Assembly (NCBI GenBank): GCA_964396115.1
Contig: CAYNDL010000005.1
Location: forward strand, 142-32,141
Source of the DNA: an uncultured Candidatus Saccharibacteria bacterium
GTDB taxonomy: Bacteria > Patescibacteriota > Andersenbacteria > UBA10190 > CAIZMI01
Reading direction: 5' to 3'
DNA: 32,000 nucleotides
The position numbers and the translations under genes were made by a program. The notes below the pieces were generated by a model, which had not been told where the DNA came from, searched no databases, and saw nothing but the letters and a program-made list of their open reading frames with translations. Numbering within the stretch: position 1 is the first letter of the stretch; each line of letters begins with the position of its first letter. Of this stretch, positions 3,331 through 25,360 are shown piece by piece.

Positions 3331-4500
3331 TCAGCAGGCGACTGCTGGAACCCAATTCGGTTCAATCGACTGGTAGACGAAGAGATCGTCTTGCAGTGCC
3401 TTCTTGATTGCAGCCCGGTCCACATTATTGAGTGGAGTACCAGATGCGAGCTTGGCCCAAAAAGTTGGACTGGCATAGCGCACGGCATGCCCGGCGACTC
3501 TTACCTCAGTGAGCAGGTCACCATCGCCTTGGGGGATGAAAACATCATTGATGTTATCGGTCCCCAATTGGACAGGAATTCGGCAAGCGCATAACTCCAG
3601 GATCGGAGCAATAGCGCTATGGGAAGGAGCCAAGATCGGTCGCAGCTGGCGCATGGAGACTGCAGCGGTCGGACACACGATGACCCCAACCTTGTACTCC
3701 ATGAGATCATCCAGAAGTTGCCGACGTCGTGCTTCACCATACCCATTGGGCGAAATCATGTGAATCGCCCAGACCATCGGTCCTTTGCGGAATGGATCCA
3801 GCCACTTGAGTCCCTCGATCAGCGTTTCGGTGCCATGTTCGTTCGGGTTGTTGGCCTGGTCAACATGGACATGAACTTCCTTGTTTAACTCCATCGCCAG
3901 TTCAAGAATGCGGCGCAGATGTCCTCGGAAGGTGATTCTGCCAGCGTGTTTCACCGGATCAGAGTGCTCATCCTTTTCCGGCAGGCCCACTAGGAAGTCG
4001 GCTTGTTTAGCGGCTCTGGCAAATACCTTCCATCTCTGGGTTCCTTCCTTAAAACCGAAGATGGGCATAGGGCCGATCTCGATCTTGATGCGGGTCGCGT
4101 ACTTTTCTTTCAGTTCCTGTGCCACCCGAAAGGCGAGCATGCCACGTTCCTTAATGTCCGGCGTGACATCGATGCAGGAGACAAAGCGTGTTACGCCGTA
4201 CGCAATCTGGTTCTCGATAACCTGCGACATTCGGACGCGCAAGTCCTTCTCTGTGAAGGCCATCCCGTCATGGAATGCCCCTACGAGGTCCTGCTTGACC
4301 TCGAGTGGTGCGCTGCTTGCGTCTAGCGGCGTCGTTCCGATGTGACGGAGATACTCGTCCGGCAGAGTTCTTGCCCGATCCCAGTGAGCATGGGCGTTGC
4401 TGAACCCTCCCATTTTTTGGACGTCCCGTAGAACGGATTCGCCAAAAATGTCGAGTTGCCGTGGGACAACTATGTTTCTTGTCAAACGTGCTTTTCTCAT
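3331..4500 (-). CDS. Metal-dependent amidohydrolase, cytosine-deaminase-like
   Basis: 389 aa. HxH motif (NAHAHWD), VHVHVDQANNPNE (compare CodA IDVHCDEIDD) and a C-terminal GTDNINDVF (compare GHDDVFDP). Strong SD AAGGAGG sits 8 nt upstream of the ATG. GC is visibly higher than in the neighbours. Confidence 0.7.
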   Translation of the reverse strand: MRKARLTRNIVVPRQLDIFGESVLRDVQKMGGFSNAHAHWDRARTLPDEYLRHIGTTPLDASSAPLEVKQDLVGAFHDGMAFTEKDLRVRMSQVIENQIAYGVTRFVSCIDVTPDIKERGMLAFRVAQELKEKYATRIKIEIGPMPIFGFKEGTQRWKVFARAAKQADFLVGLPEKDEHSDPVKHAGRITFRGHLRRILELAMELNKEVHVHVDQANNPNEHGTETLIEGLKWLDPFRKGPMVWAIHMISPNGYGEARRRQLLDDLMEYKVGVIVCPTAAVSMRQLRPILAPSHSAIAPILELCACRIPVQLGTDNINDVFIPQGDGDLLTEVRVAGHAVRYASPTFWAKLASGTPLNNVDRAAIKKALQDDLFVYQSIEPNWVPAVAC

Positions 4501-8941: not shown

Positions 8942-9026
8942 GACTAATTATAATATATGCATTATAGTAATCCGGTTACCCGAACTCGGGTAAGGTAGTT
9001 GTCCCTTTCACCACGGAGGCGTGCCT

Positions 9027-9416
9027 ATGAAGGACAAGCTGATGTTGATGCTGGTCGCAATCATGGCGATCGGCCCGCCGGCGCTCGCGATGGCGATGCA
9101 AGGCGGCCAGGCAGTTCCAGCAGGTGTCCTTGACAGCGGCCTTGCCGGAGAGCCCGGAGGTGCTCTCGTCATCGGCAAGGACAATGGCGTTGTCATGGAC
9201 AGCGACCGGCATGTCGTTGCCTTATACCATTCGTCGCGCAACGACGTTGCCCCGCAGTCCGGCGTGCCTTGGAATACGGTTCTCGAGGCGAAGCCGGCCA
9301 ACGGGCAGTCCGTATCCGAGCCGTACCGCGACATCATCGCCGCCAGGAGGTCGGATGGGACCAACATTCGCTTCCTGCGTCCGCGGTTTGCCGGCTGGCG
9401 CTATCTCAAGATCTGA
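9027..9416 (+). CDS. Small secreted hypothetical protein (129 aa) in a GC-rich mini-island
   Basis: GGAGG (9015-9019) lies 7 nt before the ATG. Signal-peptide-like N-terminus MKDKLMLMLVAIMAIGPPALAMA. By hand count roughly three quarters or more of third codon positions are G/C in this frame. No family recognised. Confidence 0.6.
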   Translation: MKDKLMLMLVAIMAIGPPALAMAMQGGQAVPAGVLDSGLAGEPGGALVIGKDNGVVMDSDRHVVALYHSSRNDVAPQSGVPWNTVLEAKPANGQSVSEPYRDIIAARRSDGTNIRFLRPRFAGWRYLKI

Positions 9417-9520: not shown

Positions 9521-9610
9521 TGCCCATCAATTTTGGTTATGCTACCGTGCCTAGTTACCAGAAACACGACCCATTCGGAACCTGATAGTACCTAAGACAA
9601 GGAGAGTGTG

Positions 9611-10888
9611 ATGAAGTTTGATAATCGAGTCCGGACCATTTCTTTGCCCGGGTCTCACGACGTTAATGTGACGCCGATCAAGCCAGTTGTTGACCACCCG
9701 CTTTTTCAAAAGTTGAGAATGCGTAAGCAGATGGGGACGGGTAACTTGATCTTCCCATCAGCAACCCACACACGTTTCGAACATTCTCTTGGGACTTATT
9801 CACTCACTCAGGAGAGAACTAATCGTTGGTTGCGTCATGGGGAGATCACGAAGGAAGAAGCCGACGCGCTTTGCATGTTCGGATTGCTGCACGATCTCGG
9901 CCACGGGCCATATTCCCACGAAGTCGAAAAACTGTGTCGTATTGACCACAACCAAAACGGCATCCGACTTCTTGGTGAACTGCACCCTGCAGTAGACGAG
10001 CTATGCAATGTGGATTTTTTGTGGGAGCTTATGAAACACAATAATCCTCTTTGCGCTGCCGTAAGCCATCACCCGCTGGGGACGGACAAGCTGGACTATT
10101 TGGTGAGAGATGCCCGCCATACGAACGAAGCCATTACGATCGCCATGGGGGCTATCCTCAACTATTCCCATTTCATCGACGGCCAGCTTGTAATCGATGG
10201 TAAGATTGCCGACGAAGTAATGGCGGCGCAACGTGCGTATTTCTACATGTATAAGCGCGTCTACTTCCGCAAGGCGTGCCTTATTGCGAAACGCATGATG
10301 CAAAAGATGGTGCGCGCTATCATGGATGATCAAGTGCATAACCCCGTTCTTACAGAAGGTAGGCTATGGGGTTTGGTTGACTCCGAGCTAGACTCGTTTT
10401 GTATCTCGTCGAAAAACCCACTCGTGCAGGCTTACTTCGATAGGCTACTGCACAGGCAGCTTCCCAAGACAGCGGTGGTTATTCGTCCCGAGGGTTACGC
10501 TTCACACGAAATGACTTGTGGTAAGGAGGTTCGAGTTTTTCCATTGCCATGGGACATGATGGACTGCTTAAACCGCCTCAATGTTCCGGACTTTGCGTCA
10601 GCTTTGGAGACAAAAATCGCCCAAAAGTCGTGTCTTCCGCCAGACTCGGTCTTCATTGTTCCCGTCGTCTCCAAGCGTCGCTTTGTTCCGGTGGATGTTC
10701 CTGTTTACGATCGCGGAAGGAGAGTGAGCACCTTGAGAGACATGTATCCACGCCACTATGACGCGTTGCAGGAACAGGCCGATGATTACGCAGCAATTAG
10801 GGTTTGCGTCTTCAAGGAACATCGGGATGTCCTGTCCAGAGCAGGGGATAACGTGGTGCAGACGCTCCTTGAAAGTGTGGGCATCTGA
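9611..10888 (+). CDS. HD-domain phosphohydrolase, SAMHD1/COG1078-like (candidate dNTP triphosphohydrolase)
   Basis: Motifs RFEHSLGT, GLLHDLGHGPYSH and DKLDYLVRDARHT. AAGGAGAG SD upstream. ATG 9611 is preferred over GTG 9608. Confidence 0.75.
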   Translation: MKFDNRVRTISLPGSHDVNVTPIKPVVDHPLFQKLRMRKQMGTGNLIFPSATHTRFEHSLGTYSLTQERTNRWLRHGEITKEEADALCMFGLLHDLGHGPYSHEVEKLCRIDHNQNGIRLLGELHPAVDELCNVDFLWELMKHNNPLCAAVSHHPLGTDKLDYLVRDARHTNEAITIAMGAILNYSHFIDGQLVIDGKIADEVMAAQRAYFYMYKRVYFRKACLIAKRMMQKMVRAIMDDQVHNPVLTEGRLWGLVDSELDSFCISSKNPLVQAYFDRLLHRQLPKTAVVIRPEGYASHEMTCGKEVRVFPLPWDMMDCLNRLNVPDFASALETKIAQKSCLPPDSVFIVPVVSKRRFVPVDVPVYDRGRRVSTLRDMYPRHYDALQEQADDYAAIRVCVFKEHRDVLSRAGDNVVQTLLESVGI

Positions 10889-21318: not shown

Positions 21319-22038
21319 TCAGGTAACTCGTTGTTTGATTACATGAGCAACCAATGACCTTGCTAATACGTGTGACGAATCCACAAATGGAACATCGGGG
21401 AAATCGGCAATAAATAATGGATAGAGCAGGGATAGTTCGGTGCAGGCAAGCACGATGACTTCTGCTCCCTCTTCCTGCATCTGTCTAATTGCTGGTGTCA
21501 GATTTTTACCTGTACGTGGTTCCCCAGCCTTAATTGCGTAAATAGTTTTCATCACCAGTTCCTGGTTTATTGTTGAAGGCACTATCCAGTCTAGATCTAA
21601 GTTTTCGCGCTGATATACTTGGGCAGCAACCGTTCCGCTTGTTGCTAACAAACCTACTTTTGTCCGTCCATATTTTGCACGTATTACGTCAGTCGTCTTT
21701 TCGATCATGTTTAATACTGGAACACCGACGCCAGCTTGAATTTCTGCGAAGCGGGCATGCGAGGTGTTGCAGGGTATCCCGATGACTGTTGCTCCCGCCG
21801 TCTCCAGTACTTGAGCAGTTTCCTTTATGGCCCTCGCAAAGTCCTTTCCTCTCAAAGGACCGAAAAGGGAAGCGGTGCGGTCGGGAATCTGTGGGTTGGT
21901 GTATGTGATGACTGGAATATGATCTTGGTCGCGTTTTGCTTGGGTCGCCTCAATAATAAGTTTTTGCAGTAAAACCCCCGCCATTGGCCCCATGCCGCCG
22001 ACTATTCCGATGCAACTTTTTTTAACGAATGTTTGCAT
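21319..22038 (-). CDS. Aspartate/glutamate racemase family protein (aspartate racemase-like)
   Basis: IGIVGGMGPMAG plus two catalytic Cys contexts, GIPCNTSHA and LACTELS. Confidence 0.8.
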   Translation of the reverse strand: MQTFVKKSCIGIVGGMGPMAGVLLQKLIIEATQAKRDQDHIPVITYTNPQIPDRTASLFGPLRGKDFARAIKETAQVLETAGATVIGIPCNTSHARFAEIQAGVGVPVLNMIEKTTDVIRAKYGRTKVGLLATSGTVAAQVYQRENLDLDWIVPSTINQELVMKTIYAIKAGEPRTGKNLTPAIRQMQEEGAEVIVLACTELSLLYPLFIADFPDVPFVDSSHVLARSLVAHVIKQRVT

Positions 22039-23089
22039 ATTTTTCTAAATAAGAAATTACTTGTTTTTTAGGGAGAGCCTCTAGTTTGTTCCCAGCTCTT
22101 CCTGACATGGTATCGGCGGCAAAAAGAGCGTCATAAACACTTTCTTCCACACATTCCACCACAGCCAAAAAGAAGTTGGTTAGGTCGTTATCAGTTAAAC
22201 AAGAGTAATTATTCTCACCTTCAACTCCGGCGCGATTTATAGAAAAGGCGATAGCATAGTCTCCACTGCCGTGAGCCATAACTGAGCCAGTCCTTGCCAG
22301 GCCTAAGGGTGCCCTTTTTGCGATTCTCTTTAGTTGTCGTGCAGAAAAAGGTGCATCGGTAGCAATGACGATCATGCAAGACCCATCCGGTAAATCTTTT
22401 TCGATCTTGTAGTCATTTTTTCCGAGAATTTTTCCAATCGGTGCTCCTGCAATGTTCAGTGAGCCGCCAAAATTTGTCTGCAACAGAGTCCCTAGTGTAT
22501 AAGTTTTTCCATTTATTGTTACCAATCTTGATGCAGTTCCGATGCCACCTTTCCATGAGAAACAACGGGTACCGGTGCCAGCTCCGACATTACCGACGGT
22601 AGTTAAATTTGAAAGCATCGCAAAAGCGCTTTCCACGTCATTTGCATCTACAGAATTTTTATGCAGATCGTTTAAAAACCCGTCGTTTGTTTCACCAACG
22701 ACCACGTTGATGCTTTCTGTGGGTTGGAGATCATTTTGATTATTAATTACATGGTCAATAACACCACGCATTACCGGACCAACAGCGAGTGTGTTTGTTA
22801 AGGCGATCGGAGTCTCGATTGTTCCGAGTTCTTCTACTTGGGTTGTTCCCGTAATTTTTCCGTACCCGTTGCCAACATATGTTGCTGCGGGAATTTTGTT
22901 GCGAAAAAGATTCTCGATGCCCGGGTCAATTACCGTGACTCCCGTTCGGACGTCGGTACCATTAACCTTAGTTGAATGACCAACGCGAATATTACCCACA
23001 TCCGTGATTGAGTTGTTATTTCCATATTTTAATAAACTGCTTGAAAAGCCGTATTCAAAAAACCTTTTTTTAGTTGAAGAATTGTCCAT
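22022..23089 (-). CDS. Peptidase S58 (DmpA/BapA-type Ntn aminopeptidase)
   Basis: 355 aa from ATG 23089 (MDNSSTKK...). ITDVGNIRVGHST...TGVTVI, and the self-processing-site-like DGSCMIVIATDAPFSARQLKRIA. The 3' end overlaps the racemase start by 17 nt. Confidence 0.7.
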   Translation of the reverse strand: MDNSSTKKRFFEYGFSSSLLKYGNNNSITDVGNIRVGHSTKVNGTDVRTGVTVIDPGIENLFRNKIPAATYVGNGYGKITGTTQVEELGTIETPIALTNTLAVGPVMRGVIDHVINNQNDLQPTESINVVVGETNDGFLNDLHKNSVDANDVESAFAMLSNLTTVGNVGAGTGTRCFSWKGGIGTASRLVTINGKTYTLGTLLQTNFGGSLNIAGAPIGKILGKNDYKIEKDLPDGSCMIVIATDAPFSARQLKRIAKRAPLGLARTGSVMAHGSGDYAIAFSINRAGVEGENNYSCLTDNDLTNFFLAVVECVEESVYDALFAADTMSGRAGNKLEALPKKQVISYLEKYANIR

Positions 23090-23108
23090 AAGTGGTAGTA
23101 AAATAAAT

Positions 23109-23147
23109 TTCGGATGCCAGAAGCATTGCTGCTTTCTGGCATCCGAA
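23109..23147 (-). terminator. Intrinsic terminator downstream of the amidoligase gene
   Basis: Perfect 14-bp arms ttcggatgccagaa/ttctggcatccgaa with an 11-nt loop. On the minus strand they are followed by AAATTTATTTT. The hairpin lies between stop 23158 and the S58 start at 23089. Confidence 0.65.
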
Positions 23148-23157
23148 TAATGAGGAG

Positions 23158-24954
23158 TCACTCCAACCGGACTGGTGCTACTGCCATGTCGACACGGCCA
23201 TGCACCCTCAAGGTATTGGAGGGTACTGCGCAAGAGTGAACTGAGACTACTTCGCCGCCGACCATCCACGGACGTAGAAGGACACGGCAGTTGAAGATCT
23301 CGCCGGCAGCAAGTTTGGTGTTGAAGACGGGGAGCTGCACGATCCCCGTTTCCAGACGCCGTTGGACGATGAATGGTTGGTTCTGATTCAACCGCTCGCT
23401 GATCCAATCGCGCCAAGTGGCCTGGTTGAGGCCGTGACCCATGAGCACTCCGTAGGAGCGGGCGGTCATGGTATTCGCGCCAGAGAGCTTCATCACCAAG
23501 CTGTCTCTTTTCGCGGCGGGCAACTCTTGCAGTTCGCTAACCGAGTGGGCGTGTACACCGTCCACGCGCAACGGGAAGTCACTAGCAGAGCGCACTAGTT
23601 GCGAGTCAGGAAGAATCTGGTCCAGCACGGAAAAAGTTTGCGGATCCAGTATCTTCCGGAAAAACTCCAAGTGGCTCCGGAAAATCGAAAACCAGGTCTT
23701 GTTGCCGAAATGGGCGAACTCCGGAACCATCCGGACACGACCACTGTGGGCGGCCTTGACCAAGTCAATCAGTTTCCCAGTTGCTTCGAAGATCGGGAAT
23801 TGGCGCCAAACAGTGCCAATTTTGCCGGCCTCGTCGTAAACGTCCTCTGCAGAAACCGTAAGCTTGTCCAGCTGGTCGGTGGTCAGTAGACCTACGTCAT
23901 AACCGGACTCCCGAAGGTGGTTAGTCAGCCAGGCGATCTCGGGGATGTAGCACTTGCTCCAAACGTGCGAAACCACGAAGAGCAGGCGTCCTCGGCTTGT
24001 CAGCCAATCAAAGCAGCGTTTCCACTGTTCTTGATTGATGCCGTACACCAGGTCGAGATAAGCAAGTTCTGCGAACCCTCCCGGCATCTCGTCGTTTTCC
24101 GAAGCGAACACCCCGTCTCCCGTAAAGTGGAGGTCGGGCCGTCGCACTGAAAATTCTTCGACGTTCGGGTAGAGGTACGCTTCGCGCAGGCTAGGATCAA
24201 CATCCACTCCAGCGAAAAGCTTCTCGGCAACCGATGCGTCGCTGCGAATCAGTTGGCTGCTCGCCCTTTCAAAGGCAGAAAAGGCGGACATGGCCCGTCC
24301 TAATTCATGAACGTCGCATTGCAGAGGGTCGTGCGGGATGCGGATCCAGCTGATTCGGGATCCGCGTGGGAGCTCGAGGGCACATTCCTTATCCGCAATG
24401 GATGCGGCAAGGTCAGGTCCCTGATTCAGTCTGGTCCGGATCTGTTCAATCGTATCCGGAATATTTAAGTTGACCGGCGGGCTCTCGCCCTTCCGTGGCC
24501 GTCCCCAAGGGAATTCGCCCCGGAATAATCGCTTCTGAAAATTGCGGTTAAAGTGGGCTGCGACCTGTTCAGAACAATTGCGGTATCCACTATCGATCAC
24601 GCATTTGTTACCGATCTTCACGCCCCACTGGGCACCGCAGGACCAATCCGGCATCCCTCCCCGTTGTCTGCTAGTGAAGGTAAACCTTCGTTGGGTGAAG
24701 GCGGAATCGAACAGTACTACTGCCGATTCCTTGGAGATGCCGCTTTCGAATAGTGCCTGCACTTCGGAGACGTCACGCAGGATGCGGAGTTCTTGAGGCA
24801 CAGCTGCGCCTTCCAGGGTTTCCAAGAAGGACGTGTCCTGTAGTCTTTGGCTCAACCGTCGGATTACTTCTTCGCTGTGGCTGTTGCCGGCAAGGGTGAA
24901 GTATATCCGGGGCACATCGTACATGCCGCGCAGGGTTTCCGTTACTTTCAACAT
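23158..24954 (-). CDS. Glutathionylspermidine-synthase-like (pre-ATP-grasp/ATP-grasp) amidoligase with an unrecognised ~270-aa N-terminal domain
   Basis: 598 aa. The C-terminal ~330 aa resemble, from memory, blocks of E. coli Gsp/YgiC: RRPDLHFTGDGVFASENDEMPGG, VWRQFPIFE, MVPEFAHFGNKTWFSIF, SLVMKLSGANTMTARSYGV. GAGGAG SD sits 8 nt upstream. GC-rich relative to the neighbours. Confidence 0.55.
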   Translation of the reverse strand: MLKVTETLRGMYDVPRIYFTLAGNSHSEEVIRRLSQRLQDTSFLETLEGAAVPQELRILRDVSEVQALFESGISKESAVVLFDSAFTQRRFTFTSRQRGGMPDWSCGAQWGVKIGNKCVIDSGYRNCSEQVAAHFNRNFQKRLFRGEFPWGRPRKGESPPVNLNIPDTIEQIRTRLNQGPDLAASIADKECALELPRGSRISWIRIPHDPLQCDVHELGRAMSAFSAFERASSQLIRSDASVAEKLFAGVDVDPSLREAYLYPNVEEFSVRRPDLHFTGDGVFASENDEMPGGFAELAYLDLVYGINQEQWKRCFDWLTSRGRLLFVVSHVWSKCYIPEIAWLTNHLRESGYDVGLLTTDQLDKLTVSAEDVYDEAGKIGTVWRQFPIFEATGKLIDLVKAAHSGRVRMVPEFAHFGNKTWFSIFRSHLEFFRKILDPQTFSVLDQILPDSQLVRSASDFPLRVDGVHAHSVSELQELPAAKRDSLVMKLSGANTMTARSYGVLMGHGLNQATWRDWISERLNQNQPFIVQRRLETGIVQLPVFNTKLAAGEIFNCRVLLRPWMVGGEVVSVHSCAVPSNTLRVHGRVDMAVAPVRLE

Positions 24955-25042
24955 CGTTCTTTCTCCTCAATTGTGTAAGGTGCGTTTTTCCAGCTTCGGT
25001 GCTGGCGAGTCACTCCGCTTGATTACGCCAATCCCGAAACAA

Positions 25043-25068
25043 AAACCTCCTGGTTTCCCAGGAGGTTT
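25043..25068 (-). terminator. Strong intrinsic terminator (or attenuator) 88 nt upstream of the amidoligase start codon
   Basis: Minus strand reads AAACCTCCTGG-GAAA-CCAGGAGGTTT followed by TTGTTTCGGG, so the T-run is TTTTTGTTT. Confidence 0.65.
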
Positions 25069-25088
25069 AGCTTTTGTCTAATAATTTA

Positions 25089-25211
25089 TTACAAAGTGGC
25101 TATAGAAACTCCTGGGTTTACGTGCGCAAGGTGCTTAATAAAAATGACGACCGTACGCAAGTCGGTTTTTGTAAACCAATACATGAAGCAGGAATTTCTC
25201 AAAATTTTCAT
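25089..25211 (-). CDS. Candidate 40-codon mini-gene (MKILRNSCFMYWFTKTDLRTVVIFIKHLAHVNPGVSIATL)
   Basis: Hand-translated and not in the ORF track. It is bracketed by a consensus-like promoter ending 7 nt before its ATG and by the terminator 20 nt after its stop. It could equally be a non-coding RNA. Confidence 0.25.
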   Translation of the reverse strand: MKILRNSCFMYWFTKTDLRTVVIFIKHLAHVNPGVSIATL

Positions 25212-25218
25212 AGTTTAA

Positions 25219-25247
25219 TTAATAAGTTCTTCCGTTAAGCAAGTCAA
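25219..25247 (-). promoter_or_regulatory. Candidate promoter driving the mini-gene or leader
   Basis: Minus strand reads TTGACT (25242-25247), 17 nt, TATTAA (25219-25224), 7 nt, ATG 25211. Confidence 0.4.
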
Positions 25248-25252
25248 GTGGG

Positions 25253-25360
25253 TTAGTACTTCAGGAACGGCAAGGCCAGGTAAGCAACAGTACCGATGGC
25301 AATGAATGCGGCCAAAATTCTCCAAACAATAAGCTTAATGTCGCGTTTCTTTTTACCCAT
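25253..25360 (-). CDS. Candidate 35-aa small membrane protein (MGKKKRDIKLIVWRILAAFIAIGTVAYLALPFLKY)
   Basis: Hand-translated. Basic N-terminus followed by a single hydrophobic helix. No clear RBS, which matches most native genes here. Confidence 0.3.
   Translation of the reverse strand: MGKKKRDIKLIVWRILAAFIAIGTVAYLALPFLKY

Follow-up and report, generated by a model that had tools for sequence, protein, structure and literature searches.

A conserved ligase, S58 aminopeptidase and racemase cassette of Patescibacteria with a leader attenuator and a possible role in D-amino-acid conjugation

Within the window, the 32,000-nucleotide stretch of DNA that we analyzed, positions 21319-24954 carry three minus-strand genes encoding a racemase, an S58 aminopeptidase, and a ligase that we call amidoligase X (Table 1). 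A first-pass annotation had described this arrangement together with a 17-nt overlap of the S58 and racemase genes, and both stand: the ORF positions are the same, and the overlap, ATGCAAACATTCGTTAA, can be read straight from the sequence. The ligase gene is also compositionally distinct, as had been seen before, with a GC content of 0.560 and a GC3 of 0.649, compared with a GC3 of 0.365 in the S58 gene, 0.429 in the racemase gene, and approximately 0.40-0.47 in most other genes in the window; its surroundings are about 45% GC. That annotation had included neither the extra N-terminal domain of the ligase nor, 5' of its gene, the promoter, the leader ORF, and the attenuator.

Table 1. Positions of genes, domains and regulatory elements at the cassette locus
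Feature	Position	Strand	Details
PLP-independent two-cysteine racemase, aspartate/cysteate-racemase clade	21319..22038	-	239 aa
S58 (DmpA/BapA-type, MEROPS P1) self-processing Ntn aminopeptidase	22022..23089	-	355 aa
Strong stem-loop directly 3' of ligase stop codon	23109..23147	-	-28.5 kcal/mol, z = -7
Amidoligase X	23158..24954	-	598 aa; predicted ATP-grasp core, residues ~195-598
N-terminal domain of amidoligase X	24460..24954	-	residues 1-~165; alpha/beta
Second leader hairpin P1-P2 (UUUCGG..UUGGCG..CGCCAG..CCGAAGC)	24989..25043	-	between terminator and ligase Shine-Dalgarno sequence
Terminator hairpin	25043..25068	-	AAACCUCCUGG-GAAA-CCAGGAGGUUU, then U-tract
Leader ORF	25089..25211	-	MKILRNSCFMYWFTKTDLRTVVIFIKHLAHVNPGVSIATL; 40 codons; contains antiterminator 5' strand CCCAGGAG (25116-25109)
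Sigma-70-like cassette promoter	25219..25247	-	-35 TTGACT 25247-25242; 17-nt spacer; -10 TATTAA 25224-25219

The three gene products

Searches with amidoligase X against Pfam, NCBIfam, and PDB sequences returned zero matches, even at E = 10, and neither GSP_synth nor any other Pfam ATP-grasp model matched at the sequence level. Judged by these searches, the family is previously unclassified and without an existing sequence model. Foldseek with the AlphaFold model (pLDDT 92) matched glutathione synthetases, Cp1B, YjfC/YgiC, GspS, and trypanothione synthetase at E values of 7e-14 (glutathione synthetase) to 1e-7, and these matches are carboxylate-amine ligases without exception. At the level of predicted fold only, the ligase core belongs with the ATP-grasp enzymes of glutathione-synthetase/GspS type. 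The motifs E286-x-D288-E-M-P-G-G and WRQFPxFE and the residues K419, K489, Q531, E552, R561, and H585 are invariant. The modeled N-terminal domain (pLDDT 91.8) weakly resembles the peptidyl-tRNA hydrolase fold, with best Foldseek matches to Pth at E = 2e-3 and TM 0.4-0.5. This domain is missing from short-form ligases and is also found as a stand-alone protein, one copy of which comes after murC-murB.

The S58 protein matches Pfam Peptidase_S58 at 4e-105 and, in the PDB, PH0078 (8.5e-74), DmpA (3e-46), and BapA (1e-41). Because the alignments of homologues and of PH0078 begin at the ATG at 23089, the longer ORF to 23416 and JGI's GTG start (23161) are probably over-extensions. The cleavage site between G236 and S237, the S275-G276-D277 residues, and N206 are invariant across 23 cassette copies, and by its Gly-Ser site and oxyanion residues the protein looks like an active enzyme.

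The racemase matches Pfam Asp_Glu_race (7e-37), TIGR00035 (165 bits), and the PDB entry for the aspartate racemase PH0670 (8e-42). It also scores 215.5 bits against NF052483 CuyB, above the cutoff of 190 for this cysteate racemase model, so aspartate is not the sole candidate substrate; the CuyB and TIGR00035 models each match all 20 racemase copies. C90, C199, R54, and K170 are invariant in these 20 copies, the Arg and Lys being the carboxylate-binding residues of PH0670. With both cysteines and the substrate-binding Arg/Lys invariant, the racemase likewise looks active. Thus, the families first assigned to the S58 protein and the racemase hold, and the proposal of a GspS-like ATP-grasp ligase holds at the level of fold only.

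Leader attenuator and post-ligase hairpin

The cassette has its own promoter and a leader of approximately 250 nt, in which the 3' part of a short ORF doubles as the 5' strand of an antiterminator helix. Of 24 loci, 14 have the promoter pattern TTGACA-N16-18-TAnnn(T/A) at 240-316 nt 5' of the ligase start (background, 0.14 per kb), and short-form loci carry the same promoter. The AUG of the leader ORF lies approximately at the predicted transcription start and is without a Shine-Dalgarno sequence. An ATG ORF of 31-43 codons with its stop no more than 75 nt ahead of the terminator is found in 21 of 22 loci (3.6 expected), the length in one locus being 71 codons if counted from the most upstream ATG. 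An H/Y/W-rich motif is common to the leader peptides, and their C-terminal region is poorly kept. The codon-position test was ambiguous for this ORF, and no run of regulatory codons for any one amino acid was seen in it.

The 5' arm of the terminator alternatively pairs with CCCAGGAG within the leader ORF, forming a duplex of -16.6 kcal/mol, and the leader folds at -22.8 kcal/mol in the antiterminator form and -26.5 kcal/mol in the terminator form. When 8 other loci are aligned, the antiterminator comprises 24 pairs, 89.6% paired, of which 11 have both sides altered (0/500 shuffles), and the terminator comprises 8 pairs, with columns 92-99 common to the two. These helices are mutually exclusive and covarying, and together they constitute a two-state attenuator. 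The second leader hairpin, conserved as well, has 13 pairs by RNAalifold across 6 loci, with compensatory changes in 7, and covariance model R1 scores 55.7 bits there at this locus; a comparison with Rfam gave no match.

The stem-loop after the ligase gene is the strongest 3' hairpin of the window's 31 genes. The first-pass annotation had placed a terminator between the ligase and S58 genes; the hairpin there has an imperfect U-tail and drew no call from a simple terminator scan. About 23 of 24 loci have a comparable hairpin, not conserved in sequence; it is one of the three top-ranked hairpins of its locus in 17 of 26 cases, and short-form loci carry it too. Its probable role is that of a partial terminator or mRNA-end stabilizer, setting ligase expression apart from that of S58 and the racemase.

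Conservation of the cassette

Among 27 species-representative Patescibacteria genomes, 20 carry the ligase, S58, and racemase genes in one order and on one strand, at ligase identities of 42-59%, and S58 is present in 24. Most loci without the full trio are contig ends; three genomes have the ligase and S58 with no racemase nearby, and in one the ligase stands alone. In most loci, the S58 and racemase genes overlap or lie no more than about 35 nt apart, a coupling that had been suggested from this locus and is tight across genomes. The three proteins co-diverge, their identity matrices correlating at r = 0.82 for ligase and racemase and 0.64 for both ligase-S58 and S58-racemase (Mantel test, 0/2000 permutations as high). 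The trio also occurs around short-form ligases (40% identity) in other settings, downstream of rpsG and beside rplJ, with different flanking genes, and across the 27 loci no further gene family is common to more than 4 and no cell-wall neighbor is conserved. The ligase, S58, and racemase genes are conserved as a self-contained accessory cassette in the tiny genomes of Patescibacteria (CPR bacteria).

Absence of the trio from related genomes had been named beforehand as a result that would refute the proposed module, with the caveat that the association could be coincidental and the ligase foreign. A foreign ligase recently inserted beside an unrelated S58-racemase pair would fit its GC content of 56% and the hairpins on both sides of the gene. 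Yet the order is kept in 20 genomes, and the same GC3 excess and 3' hairpin recur in most carriers, which makes them traits of the ligase family rather than marks of recent insertion here. Given the conserved linkage and co-divergence, we rule out coincidental adjacency, to which we assign a negligible probability.

The ligase has a sister clade in soil metagenomes (hhalign E = 8.5e-46). Of 80 sister-clade loci, 33 have a KamA/AblA-like (lysine-2,3-aminomutase-like) gene directly downstream; among the 45 loci with full flanks the count is 24. From this placement upstream of an aminomutase-like gene, the ligase superfamily seems to pair with amino-acid isomerases.

Proposed function and known systems

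Our best explanation, held tentatively and at somewhat less than even probability, is a self-contained, leader-regulated CPR cassette that makes and trims a D-amino-acid conjugate, the chemistry of which we infer. The racemase would supply a D-configured acidic amino acid, most likely D-Asp, with D-cysteate or D-Glu also possible. The ligase would convert a carboxylate to an acyl-phosphate and join it to an amine, yielding a conjugate that ends in a free amino-terminal D- (or beta-linked) residue, and S58 would hydrolyze just that bond type in the product. Ligase and S58 might then control the conjugate level as a split synthetase/amidase pair, in the way that the two GspS domains do. In the known enzymes of glutathione-synthetase/GspS type, the activated carboxylate is that of a peptide C-terminus and not of a free amino acid, and thus S58 may cut a bond other than the one that the ligase makes. 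The genomes that have the ligase but no nearby racemase, the S58 of Sumerlaeota that has neither partner, the CuyB score of the racemase, and, for the leader, the missing Shine-Dalgarno sequence and the ambiguous codon-position signal also count against this model. In the leader, a ribosome reaching the ORF stop would melt the antiterminator, so that transcription stops ahead of the ligase gene; if the ribosome stalled at an earlier point, the antiterminator could form and the ligase would be made. The post-ligase hairpin would lower or uncouple S58 and racemase expression.

CPR bacteria are scavengers, a lifestyle that would suit a salvage module. There, S58 would act on peptides scavenged from host cell walls or the environment and free their N-terminal D- or beta-amino acids, which the racemase would turn into L-forms; the ligase would be unrelated or perform a re-capture step. 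The close spacing of the S58 and racemase genes is consistent with salvage, as are an M20 ArgE/DapE-type deacylase gene after one cassette and the equally close S58 (58% identity) that Sumerlaeota carry without a ligase or racemase partner. We nevertheless consider it unlikely: salvage does not need an ATP-spending ligase, the ligase is linked more tightly to S58 (24 loci) than to the racemase (20 loci), and the strongest co-divergence of the three pairs is that of ligase and racemase. A peptidoglycan side-chain system is rather improbable as well. It would resemble Aslfm/RacD of Enterococcus faecium, in which an ATP-grasp D-aspartate ligase is encoded beside an aspartate racemase: the ligase would attach D-Asp from the racemase, through its beta-carboxyl, to the diamino acid of the stem peptide, and S58 would trim unused D-iso-Asp. 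The shared layout, the MurJ and glycosyltransferase genes nearby in the window, and the N-domain copy after murC-murB argue for such a role; the lack of a conserved cell-wall neighbor across the 27 loci, the location of other cassette copies in ribosomal-protein operons, the ligase type, and the cytoplasmic location predicted for all three proteins from a reading of their N-termini argue against it.

Small ORFs upstream of an ATP-grasp gene and followed by a terminator are a layout common among RiPP clusters, and the fixed-size ORF of about 40 aa with its conserved H/Y/W motif directly 5' of the ligase could accordingly be a precursor peptide modified by the ATP-grasp enzyme and processed by S58. 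This is very unlikely. The 3' end of the ORF is the covarying antiterminator strand, conservation of the C-terminal part of the peptide is poor, and the ORF lacks a Shine-Dalgarno sequence. Nor does the ligase belong to the graspetide (RimK-like) enzymes, and a racemase acting on free amino acids would have no obvious role.

The proposed conjugate cassette shares features with several known systems. Its leader resembles trp-type leader-peptide attenuators, in which a promoter-proximal short ORF likewise overlaps an antiterminator strand competing with an intrinsic terminator, and the conserved aromatic/His motif recalls the metabolite-sensing arrest peptides TnaC and SpeFL. In contrast to these, the cassette leader, whose translation and stalling are predicted, occurs in CPR bacteria and has neither a Shine-Dalgarno sequence nor a run of codons for a single amino acid. 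The cassette S58 shares its sequence family, Gly-Ser self-cleavage site, and catalytic residues with DmpA (Ochrobactrum), BapA (Sphingosinicella), and PH0078 (Pyrococcus), although it has Asn in place of Tyr in the DmpA "ETYDG" motif; a literature search found none of these characterized S58 enzymes with a dedicated ligase or racemase. The make-D-Asp-then-ligate logic of Aslfm and RacD in Enterococcus faecium and Lactococcus would have a parallel in the Asp-type racemase beside an ATP-grasp ligase, but the cassette ligase falls in another ATP-grasp clade, S58 and a leader attenuator are added, and a conserved cell-wall context is lacking. For the sister clade, rather than the window's cassette, the likeness is to the AblA/AblB beta-lysine osmolyte pathway (lysine-2,3-aminomutase and acetyltransferase), where an isomerase making a non-standard amino acid is also joined by an enzyme that turns the product into an amide, there a GNAT acetyltransferase instead of an ATP-grasp ligase.

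Foldseek groups the ligase with the carboxylate-activating, amine-adding ATP-grasp enzymes GspS, trypanothione synthetase-amidase, and YgiC/YjfC of E. coli (peptide-spermidine ligases). As in GspS-type systems, a synthetase and a hydrolase would serve one bond class, and the protein bears an extra N-terminal domain; however, GspS has a fused CHAP amidase where the cassette has a separate S58 Ntn enzyme, no Cys or His is conserved in the predicted Pth-like fold of the cassette ligase's N-domain, the cassette also includes a racemase, and the ligase has no sequence match to the GSP_synth model. The top structural matches, with E values of 7e-14 to 1e-12 and a target TM of 0.54-0.58, are eukaryotic-type glutathione/homoglutathione synthetase and the fungal E-64 ligase Cp1B, which differ in taxon and gene partners and share 11-13% identity with no profile match. 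The acid that Cp1B ligates to an amino acid is trans-epoxysuccinate (PMC12568646), a C4 dicarboxylate similar in size to Asp.

A conserved three-gene cassette

The window derives from a metagenomic contig of 1.02 Mb. An ORF listing confirmed the positions that the first-pass annotation had given for three minus-strand genes, which encode a predicted ATP-grasp amidoligase (the ligase), a DmpA/BapA-type aminopeptidase (S58) and an aspartate-type, two-cysteine racemase, and the 17-nt overlap that it had claimed between the end of S58 and the beginning of the racemase gene can be read directly in the sequence. The S58 start is most likely the ATG listed in the table, because homologues align only from that codon onward. 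Mechanical extension carries the same ORF to 23416. JGI places the start at a GTG at 23161 that overlaps the ligase stop (GTGA); this call traverses the conserved hairpin between the two genes, and homologues give no support to the N-terminal extension that it creates (23089-23161). Translational coupling of S58 to the ligase via the GTGA overlap is possible.

Features of the cassette and its leader in the window
Feature	Coordinates	Strand	Remarks
Racemase	21319-22038	minus	239 aa; Pfam and NCBIfam matches
S58	22022-23089	minus	355 aa with the most likely start, ATG at 23089; PF03576 4e-105
Stem-loop in the ligase-S58 gap	23109-23147	minus	39 nt; -28.5 kcal/mol, z = -7
Ligase	23158-24954	minus	598-aa ORF
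Conserved leader	24955-25247	minus	about 250 nt
Second leader hairpin, P1-P2	24989-25043		compensatory changes
Leader ORF	25211-25089	minus	about 40 codons
Promoter	25247-25219	minus	TTGACA-N16-18-TAnnn(T/A) pattern
Small ORF	25253-25360	minus	35 aa; JGI-called gene

The first-pass annotation had cautioned that the three genes might be neighbors by coincidence and had proposed looking for their co-occurrence in related genomes. A scan of one genome per GTDB species yielded 27 loci, which we compared by tblastn with the three window proteins. The same strand and the order ligase, S58, racemase are kept in 20 of these, and the ligase is followed by S58 in 24. Three loci (L006, L020 and L030) carry ligase and S58, with no racemase found in the downstream sequence at hand, one (L018) carries the ligase alone, without S58 or racemase, and the remaining loci are interrupted by contig ends. 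When all flanking ORFs were clustered, no further family was common to more than four loci; thus, the three genes travel together through unrelated surroundings. Its proteins also diverge together. Pairwise identity matrices from the 20 complete cassettes correlate at 0.82 for ligase and racemase, 0.64 for ligase and S58, and 0.64 for S58 and racemase, and none of 2000 Mantel permutations gave values as high. Absence of the trio from related genomes, which the first-pass annotation would have taken as a refutation, is thus not what we see, and this combination of conserved linkage and co-divergence leads us to drop the caveat of coincidence. The cassette may also have a fourth, optional member, as L031 contains a short-form ligase (one without the N-terminal domain), S58 and racemase followed by an M20 hydrolase of the ArgE/DapE type (a deacylase or dipeptidase; L031 9291-10415). 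At L042, another short-form ligase, of 40% identity, is found together with S58 and racemase between rpsG and fusA.

Two further features, a hairpin after the gene and an excess of GC at third codon positions (GC3), are traits of the ligase family. The hairpin separates the ligase from the S58-racemase pair and, in the window, no other of the 31 genes has a 3' hairpin as strong. In about 23 of 24 loci, the ligase stop is followed by a long stem-loop that is near-perfect and not conserved in sequence; this hairpin belongs to the three strongest of its entire locus in 17 of 26 and is present even in L018, where the ligase stands alone. In some loci, the whole gap between ligase and S58 measures 48-53 nt, too little for a promoter before S58. 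We rejected an integron attC site as the identity of the hairpin, given that conserved core sites are absent and the stems are perfect.

As for composition, the first-pass annotation had remarked that the ligase looks foreign and that the association may be a coincidence. The window's ligase gene indeed has a GC content of 0.56 and a GC3 of 0.65, compared with GC3 values of 0.37 and 0.43 for its partners and 0.40-0.47 for most other window genes. Yet the ligase exceeds its partners and host in GC3 in most carriers (e.g., 0.91 versus 0.58/0.62, and 0.85 versus 0.59/0.66), and it does so although the three proteins co-diverge (window 23158-24954; L004-L031, L042). A single transfer does not explain this excess, and neither does expression-linked codon bias, which we rejected because the ribosomal-protein genes of the window lie at 0.40-0.50. 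Elsewhere in the window, three other genes, at 3331-4500 (minus strand, 0.60), 9021-9416 (plus, 0.77) and 9608-10888 (plus, 0.58), are also GC3-rich relative to a background of about 0.43.

The ligase family and its partner enzymes

In regard to the ligase, sequence comparisons lead only to unnamed proteins. Its 109 full-length homologues all lack names and Pfam domains; wherever the organism is named, it belongs to the Patescibacteria. Searches of Pfam and NCBIfam gave no match even at E = 10, including the glutathione-synthetase, GSP_synth and circularly permuted ATP-grasp models; phmmer and profile hmmsearch against PDB sequences returned nothing, a PADLOC scan gave nothing significant, and the source database holds no names for the ligase or S58 clusters. 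As it matches no Pfam family, the ligase does not sit in a modelled family together with Aslfm, the ATP-grasp enzyme of the Aslfm/RacD D-Asp peptidoglycan cross-bridge system, whose substrate is UDP-MurNAc-pentapeptide.

The predicted structure gives a clearer picture of the fold. An AlphaFold2 model built on 48 homologues (pLDDT 92, pTM 0.82) produced 48 Foldseek matches in the PDB at E <= 1e-3, nearly all of them to ATP-grasp enzymes, with the top 45 in the glutathione-synthetase/GspS group (probability 1.0, target TM 0.35-0.58). Human, plant and yeast glutathione/homoglutathione synthetases match at E = 7e-14 to 1e-9, and further matches of probability 1.0 include Cp1B of the E-64 pathway, E. 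coli YjfC/YgiC, Mfla_0391, GspS and trypanothione synthetase. The modelled fold is therefore an ATP-grasp of the glutathione-synthetase/GspS type, with ligation activity as a prediction. The GspS-like label given in the first-pass annotation stands at the level of fold, since these matches are enzymes of that group, and finds no support at the level of sequence, where no family model matches. Positions invariant in the ligase family include E286-x-D288-E-M-P-G-G, W383-R-Q-F-P-x-F-E, K419, K489, Q531, E552, R561 and H585; in the alignment of 48 sequences, E286-x-D288, K419, K489, Q531, E552 and R561, candidates for the nucleotide- and Mg-binding residues of this enzyme group (two Lys, acidic/Asn metal ligands and Arg), appear without exception, and most have counterparts in the sister clade described below.

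An exhaustive profile search extended the family to 367 cluster representatives in four groups: full-length proteins, forms of ~450 aa without the first ~160 residues, stand-alone proteins of 160-190 aa that match the N-terminal part only, and a distant clade of 420-500 aa. No Pfam domain rose above threshold in any of 10 proteins sampled across the four groups, or in any of the 11 scanned among the 367 representatives. The N-terminal domain modelled by itself (pLDDT 91.8) bears a weak likeness to peptidyl-tRNA hydrolase (E = 2e-3, TM 0.4-0.5), and it has no conserved Cys or His. Its stand-alone counterparts form a family without a Pfam model (L034 6001-6522; P0142, P0150, P0164, P0168 and others). 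One copy comes after murC-murB and a ribosome hibernation factor gene; the neighborhoods of the stand-alone proteins, consisting of one short contig and this one locus, are uninformative.

The distant clade, a sister group from soil metagenomes with more than 550 loci (L045-L124; L036 and L037 among them), is clearly homologous to the ligase across residues 195-598 (hhalign probability 100%, E = 8.5e-46). In 33 of 80 of these metagenome loci (L045-L124), the next gene downstream, on the same strand, encodes a KamA-family radical-SAM aminomutase; of the 45 loci whose flanks each extend for 1.4 kb or more, 24 have this arrangement. S58 and the racemase are absent from all 80. Two of the aminomutases score best with the lysine-2,3-aminomutase AblA model, and one exceeds its cutoff. 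The sister-clade ligase and its KamA/AblA-like aminomutase are an uncharacterised two-gene module, whose product is probably a beta-amino-acid amide. Because the partner in both clades makes a non-standard isomer out of a standard amino acid, it provides the best clue to the substrate class of the ligase.

The two partner enzymes of the cassette can be placed in established families. S58 (MEROPS P1) matches PF03576 at 4.3e-105 (352 bits; cutoff 23.9), and its nearest PDB structures are those of the uncharacterised PH0078 (8.5e-74), DmpA (3e-46) and BapA (1e-41). Its G236/S237 self-cleavage site, which would leave Ser as an N-terminal nucleophile, aligns with DmpA G249/S250, and all 23 cassette copies keep G236, S237, S275-G276-D277 and N206, so that S58 looks active as far as its residues predict. 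Those relatives that have been characterised remove D-Ala or beta-amino acids from N-termini. Substrate specificity differs among members of the S58 family, and a preference for N-terminal D- or beta-amino acids is putative here. An S58 from Sumerlaeota (L039-L041 5001-6077) is 58% identical to that of the window, as close as cassette copies are to one another. It has neither ligase nor racemase and adjoins an unrelated 400-aa protein without a Pfam domain; the upstream gene was considered as a ligase relative and rejected, as it shows no relationship. This S58 subfamily thus also occurs outside the cassette.

The racemase matches PF01177 (Asp_Glu_race; 7e-37) and TIGR00035 (165 bits), and among solved structures it comes nearest to the Pyrococcus aspartate racemase PH0670 (8e-42). 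Its PCNTSHA and CTELS motifs align with Cys82 and Cys194 of PH0670, and all 20 copies retain the cysteines in question, C90 and C199. R54 (motif IPDRT) and K170 (motif IKAG), also invariant in the 20, align with PH0670 Arg48 and Lys164, the residues that bind the substrate carboxylates. Judged by these residues, the racemase looks active. The window copy also scores 215.5 bits against the cysteate-racemase equivalog NF052483 (CuyB), whose cutoff is 190, and all 20 cassette racemases match this model at E <= 1e-10 (best 6.8e-65) as well as the asp_race model (TIGR00035). Matches of all copies to both models point to a small acidic amino acid as the substrate, most likely aspartate and possibly cysteate. 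The usual genomic partner of CuyB is the D-cysteate sulfo-lyase CuyA (PMC11193023); neither CuyA nor another PLP-dependent lyase is among the conserved neighbors of the cassette racemases, which are the ligase and S58 only.

A two-state leader upstream of the ligase

The leader upstream of the ligase is conserved, though the flanking genes differ. In 14 of 24 loci, a promoter of the TTGACA-N16-18-TAnnn(T/A) pattern (background 0.14 per kb) is found 240-316 nt upstream of the ligase start, and an ATG ORF begins ~7-15 nt past its -10 element. An ATG ORF of 31-43 codons whose end lies no more than 75 nt ahead of a terminator hairpin is present in 21 of 22 loci, where shuffles expect 3.6; one of the 21 reaches 71 codons when counted from the most upstream ATG. 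The encoded peptides have a common H/Y/W-rich motif (e.g., NHYFMW, IHYFIWM, FMYWF, FAWLH and CHWF), recurrently resembling H-Y-x-x-W, and contain no run of codons for a single amino acid. The leader ORF has no Shine-Dalgarno sequence, and a codon-position test gave a clear excess of third-position changes in one subgroup only; its translation is putative.

Downstream of this ORF, about 20 of 24 loci have a terminator-like hairpin with a U-tract, placed 35-145 nt ahead of the ligase start, and an upstream segment complementary to the 5' arm of the terminator is enriched (z < -2 in 10 of 21 loci). In a hand-seeded two-state alignment of eight loci, the antiterminator helix comprises 24 pairs that are 89.6% paired (36-55% in slid controls), 11 of which are changed on both sides, a count reached in none of 500 shuffles. 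The terminator helix comprises eight pairs, 82.8% paired, and has columns 92-99 in common with the antiterminator; because these eight columns are used by both helices, the two folds exclude each other. The leader ORF traverses the 5' strand of the antiterminator and stops in or near its loop in all eight loci. In the window, the pairing is between CCCAGGAG (25116-25109, leader codons N-P-G-V) and CUCCUGGG of the terminator 5' arm (-16.6 kcal/mol), and the antiterminator and terminator folds are close in energy (-22.8 versus -26.5 kcal/mol). The second hairpin, P1-P2, shows compensatory changes in 7 of 13 pairs across six loci. Short-form loci have the same promoter, ORF, pairing and terminator. 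This architecture is that of a predicted leader-peptide attenuator.

General RNA searches did not recover the leader. Rfam gave no match over the whole region at E <= 1, and the window contains no tRNAs. RNAalifold returned no structure for 11 full-length leaders because their alignment is too divergent, and aligning all upstream regions with MAFFT gave a poor result. A covariance model built from six leader hairpins (R1) was rejected as a general finder since it recovered only its seeds and weak matches; its extra match at L004 13243-13302 is a false positive, antisense in an apparent tmRNA gene beside smpB (L004 13100-13500, minus strand). Just upstream of the cassette promoter in the window, the small JGI-called ORF, MGKKKRDIKLIVWRILAAFIAIGTVAYLALPFLKY, looks like a small membrane peptide.

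Proposed function and comparison with known systems

Taken together, these enzymes suggest a mechanism in which the racemase would supply a D-acidic amino acid, the ligase would build an amide with it and S58 would hydrolyse that amide, while ribosome stalling on the leader would switch the ligase on. Salvage, peptidoglycan and RiPP-like readings are possible, at lower probability than this mechanism. A wider reading joins an unmodelled ATP-grasp superfamily for amino acids from partner isomerases, a D-conjugate cassette of the Patescibacteria (CPR) and an arrest-peptide switch; we put it forward tentatively, as it is rather unlikely to hold. In such a scheme, the ligase may found a large superfamily whose members are dedicated to non-standard amino acids delivered by a partner isomerase. 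For the CPR clade, this would be the D-acidic amino acid of the racemase, and for the soil clade a beta-amino acid from the KamA-like aminomutase. The CPR cassette would make and turn over a D-amino-acid conjugate, either a metabolite or an envelope modification, and the H-Y-x-x-W arrest peptide would be a nascent-peptide sensor that drives the terminator/antiterminator switch and turns the cassette on.

Patescibacteria have tiny genomes with very few dedicated pathways, and thus an intact, self-regulated cassette across many of their lineages likely makes a product that matters for the way they live. Sequence searches of Pfam, NCBIfam and the PDB all miss the ligase family, and the cassette together with the sister clade offers its first testable functional context, namely the ligation of D- or beta-amino acids that a partner isomerase supplies. 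S58 (DmpA/BapA) peptidases have long been without a clear physiological substrate, for which dedicated partners, a ligase and a racemase, would provide a candidate. Very few cis-regulatory mechanisms have been reported from CPR bacteria, and the leader ORF with its attenuator would be one of them; if the leader peptide senses a metabolite, it would point directly at the ligand of the pathway.

A literature search for the combination of ligase, S58 and racemase, and for an aminomutase with an ATP-grasp enzyme, found no paper. The parts are of known kinds, and what appears new is a ligase family without a model, the combination of this ligase with S58 and a racemase, and a leader without an Rfam family. 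The enzymes named above as Foldseek matches, GspS included, all phosphorylate a carboxylate and add an amine. Among them, YgiC and YjfC ligate peptides to spermidine, and Cp1B couples trans-epoxysuccinate with an amino acid (PMC12568646). By analogy, the ligase and S58 would constitute a split synthetase/amidase pair comparable to GspS.
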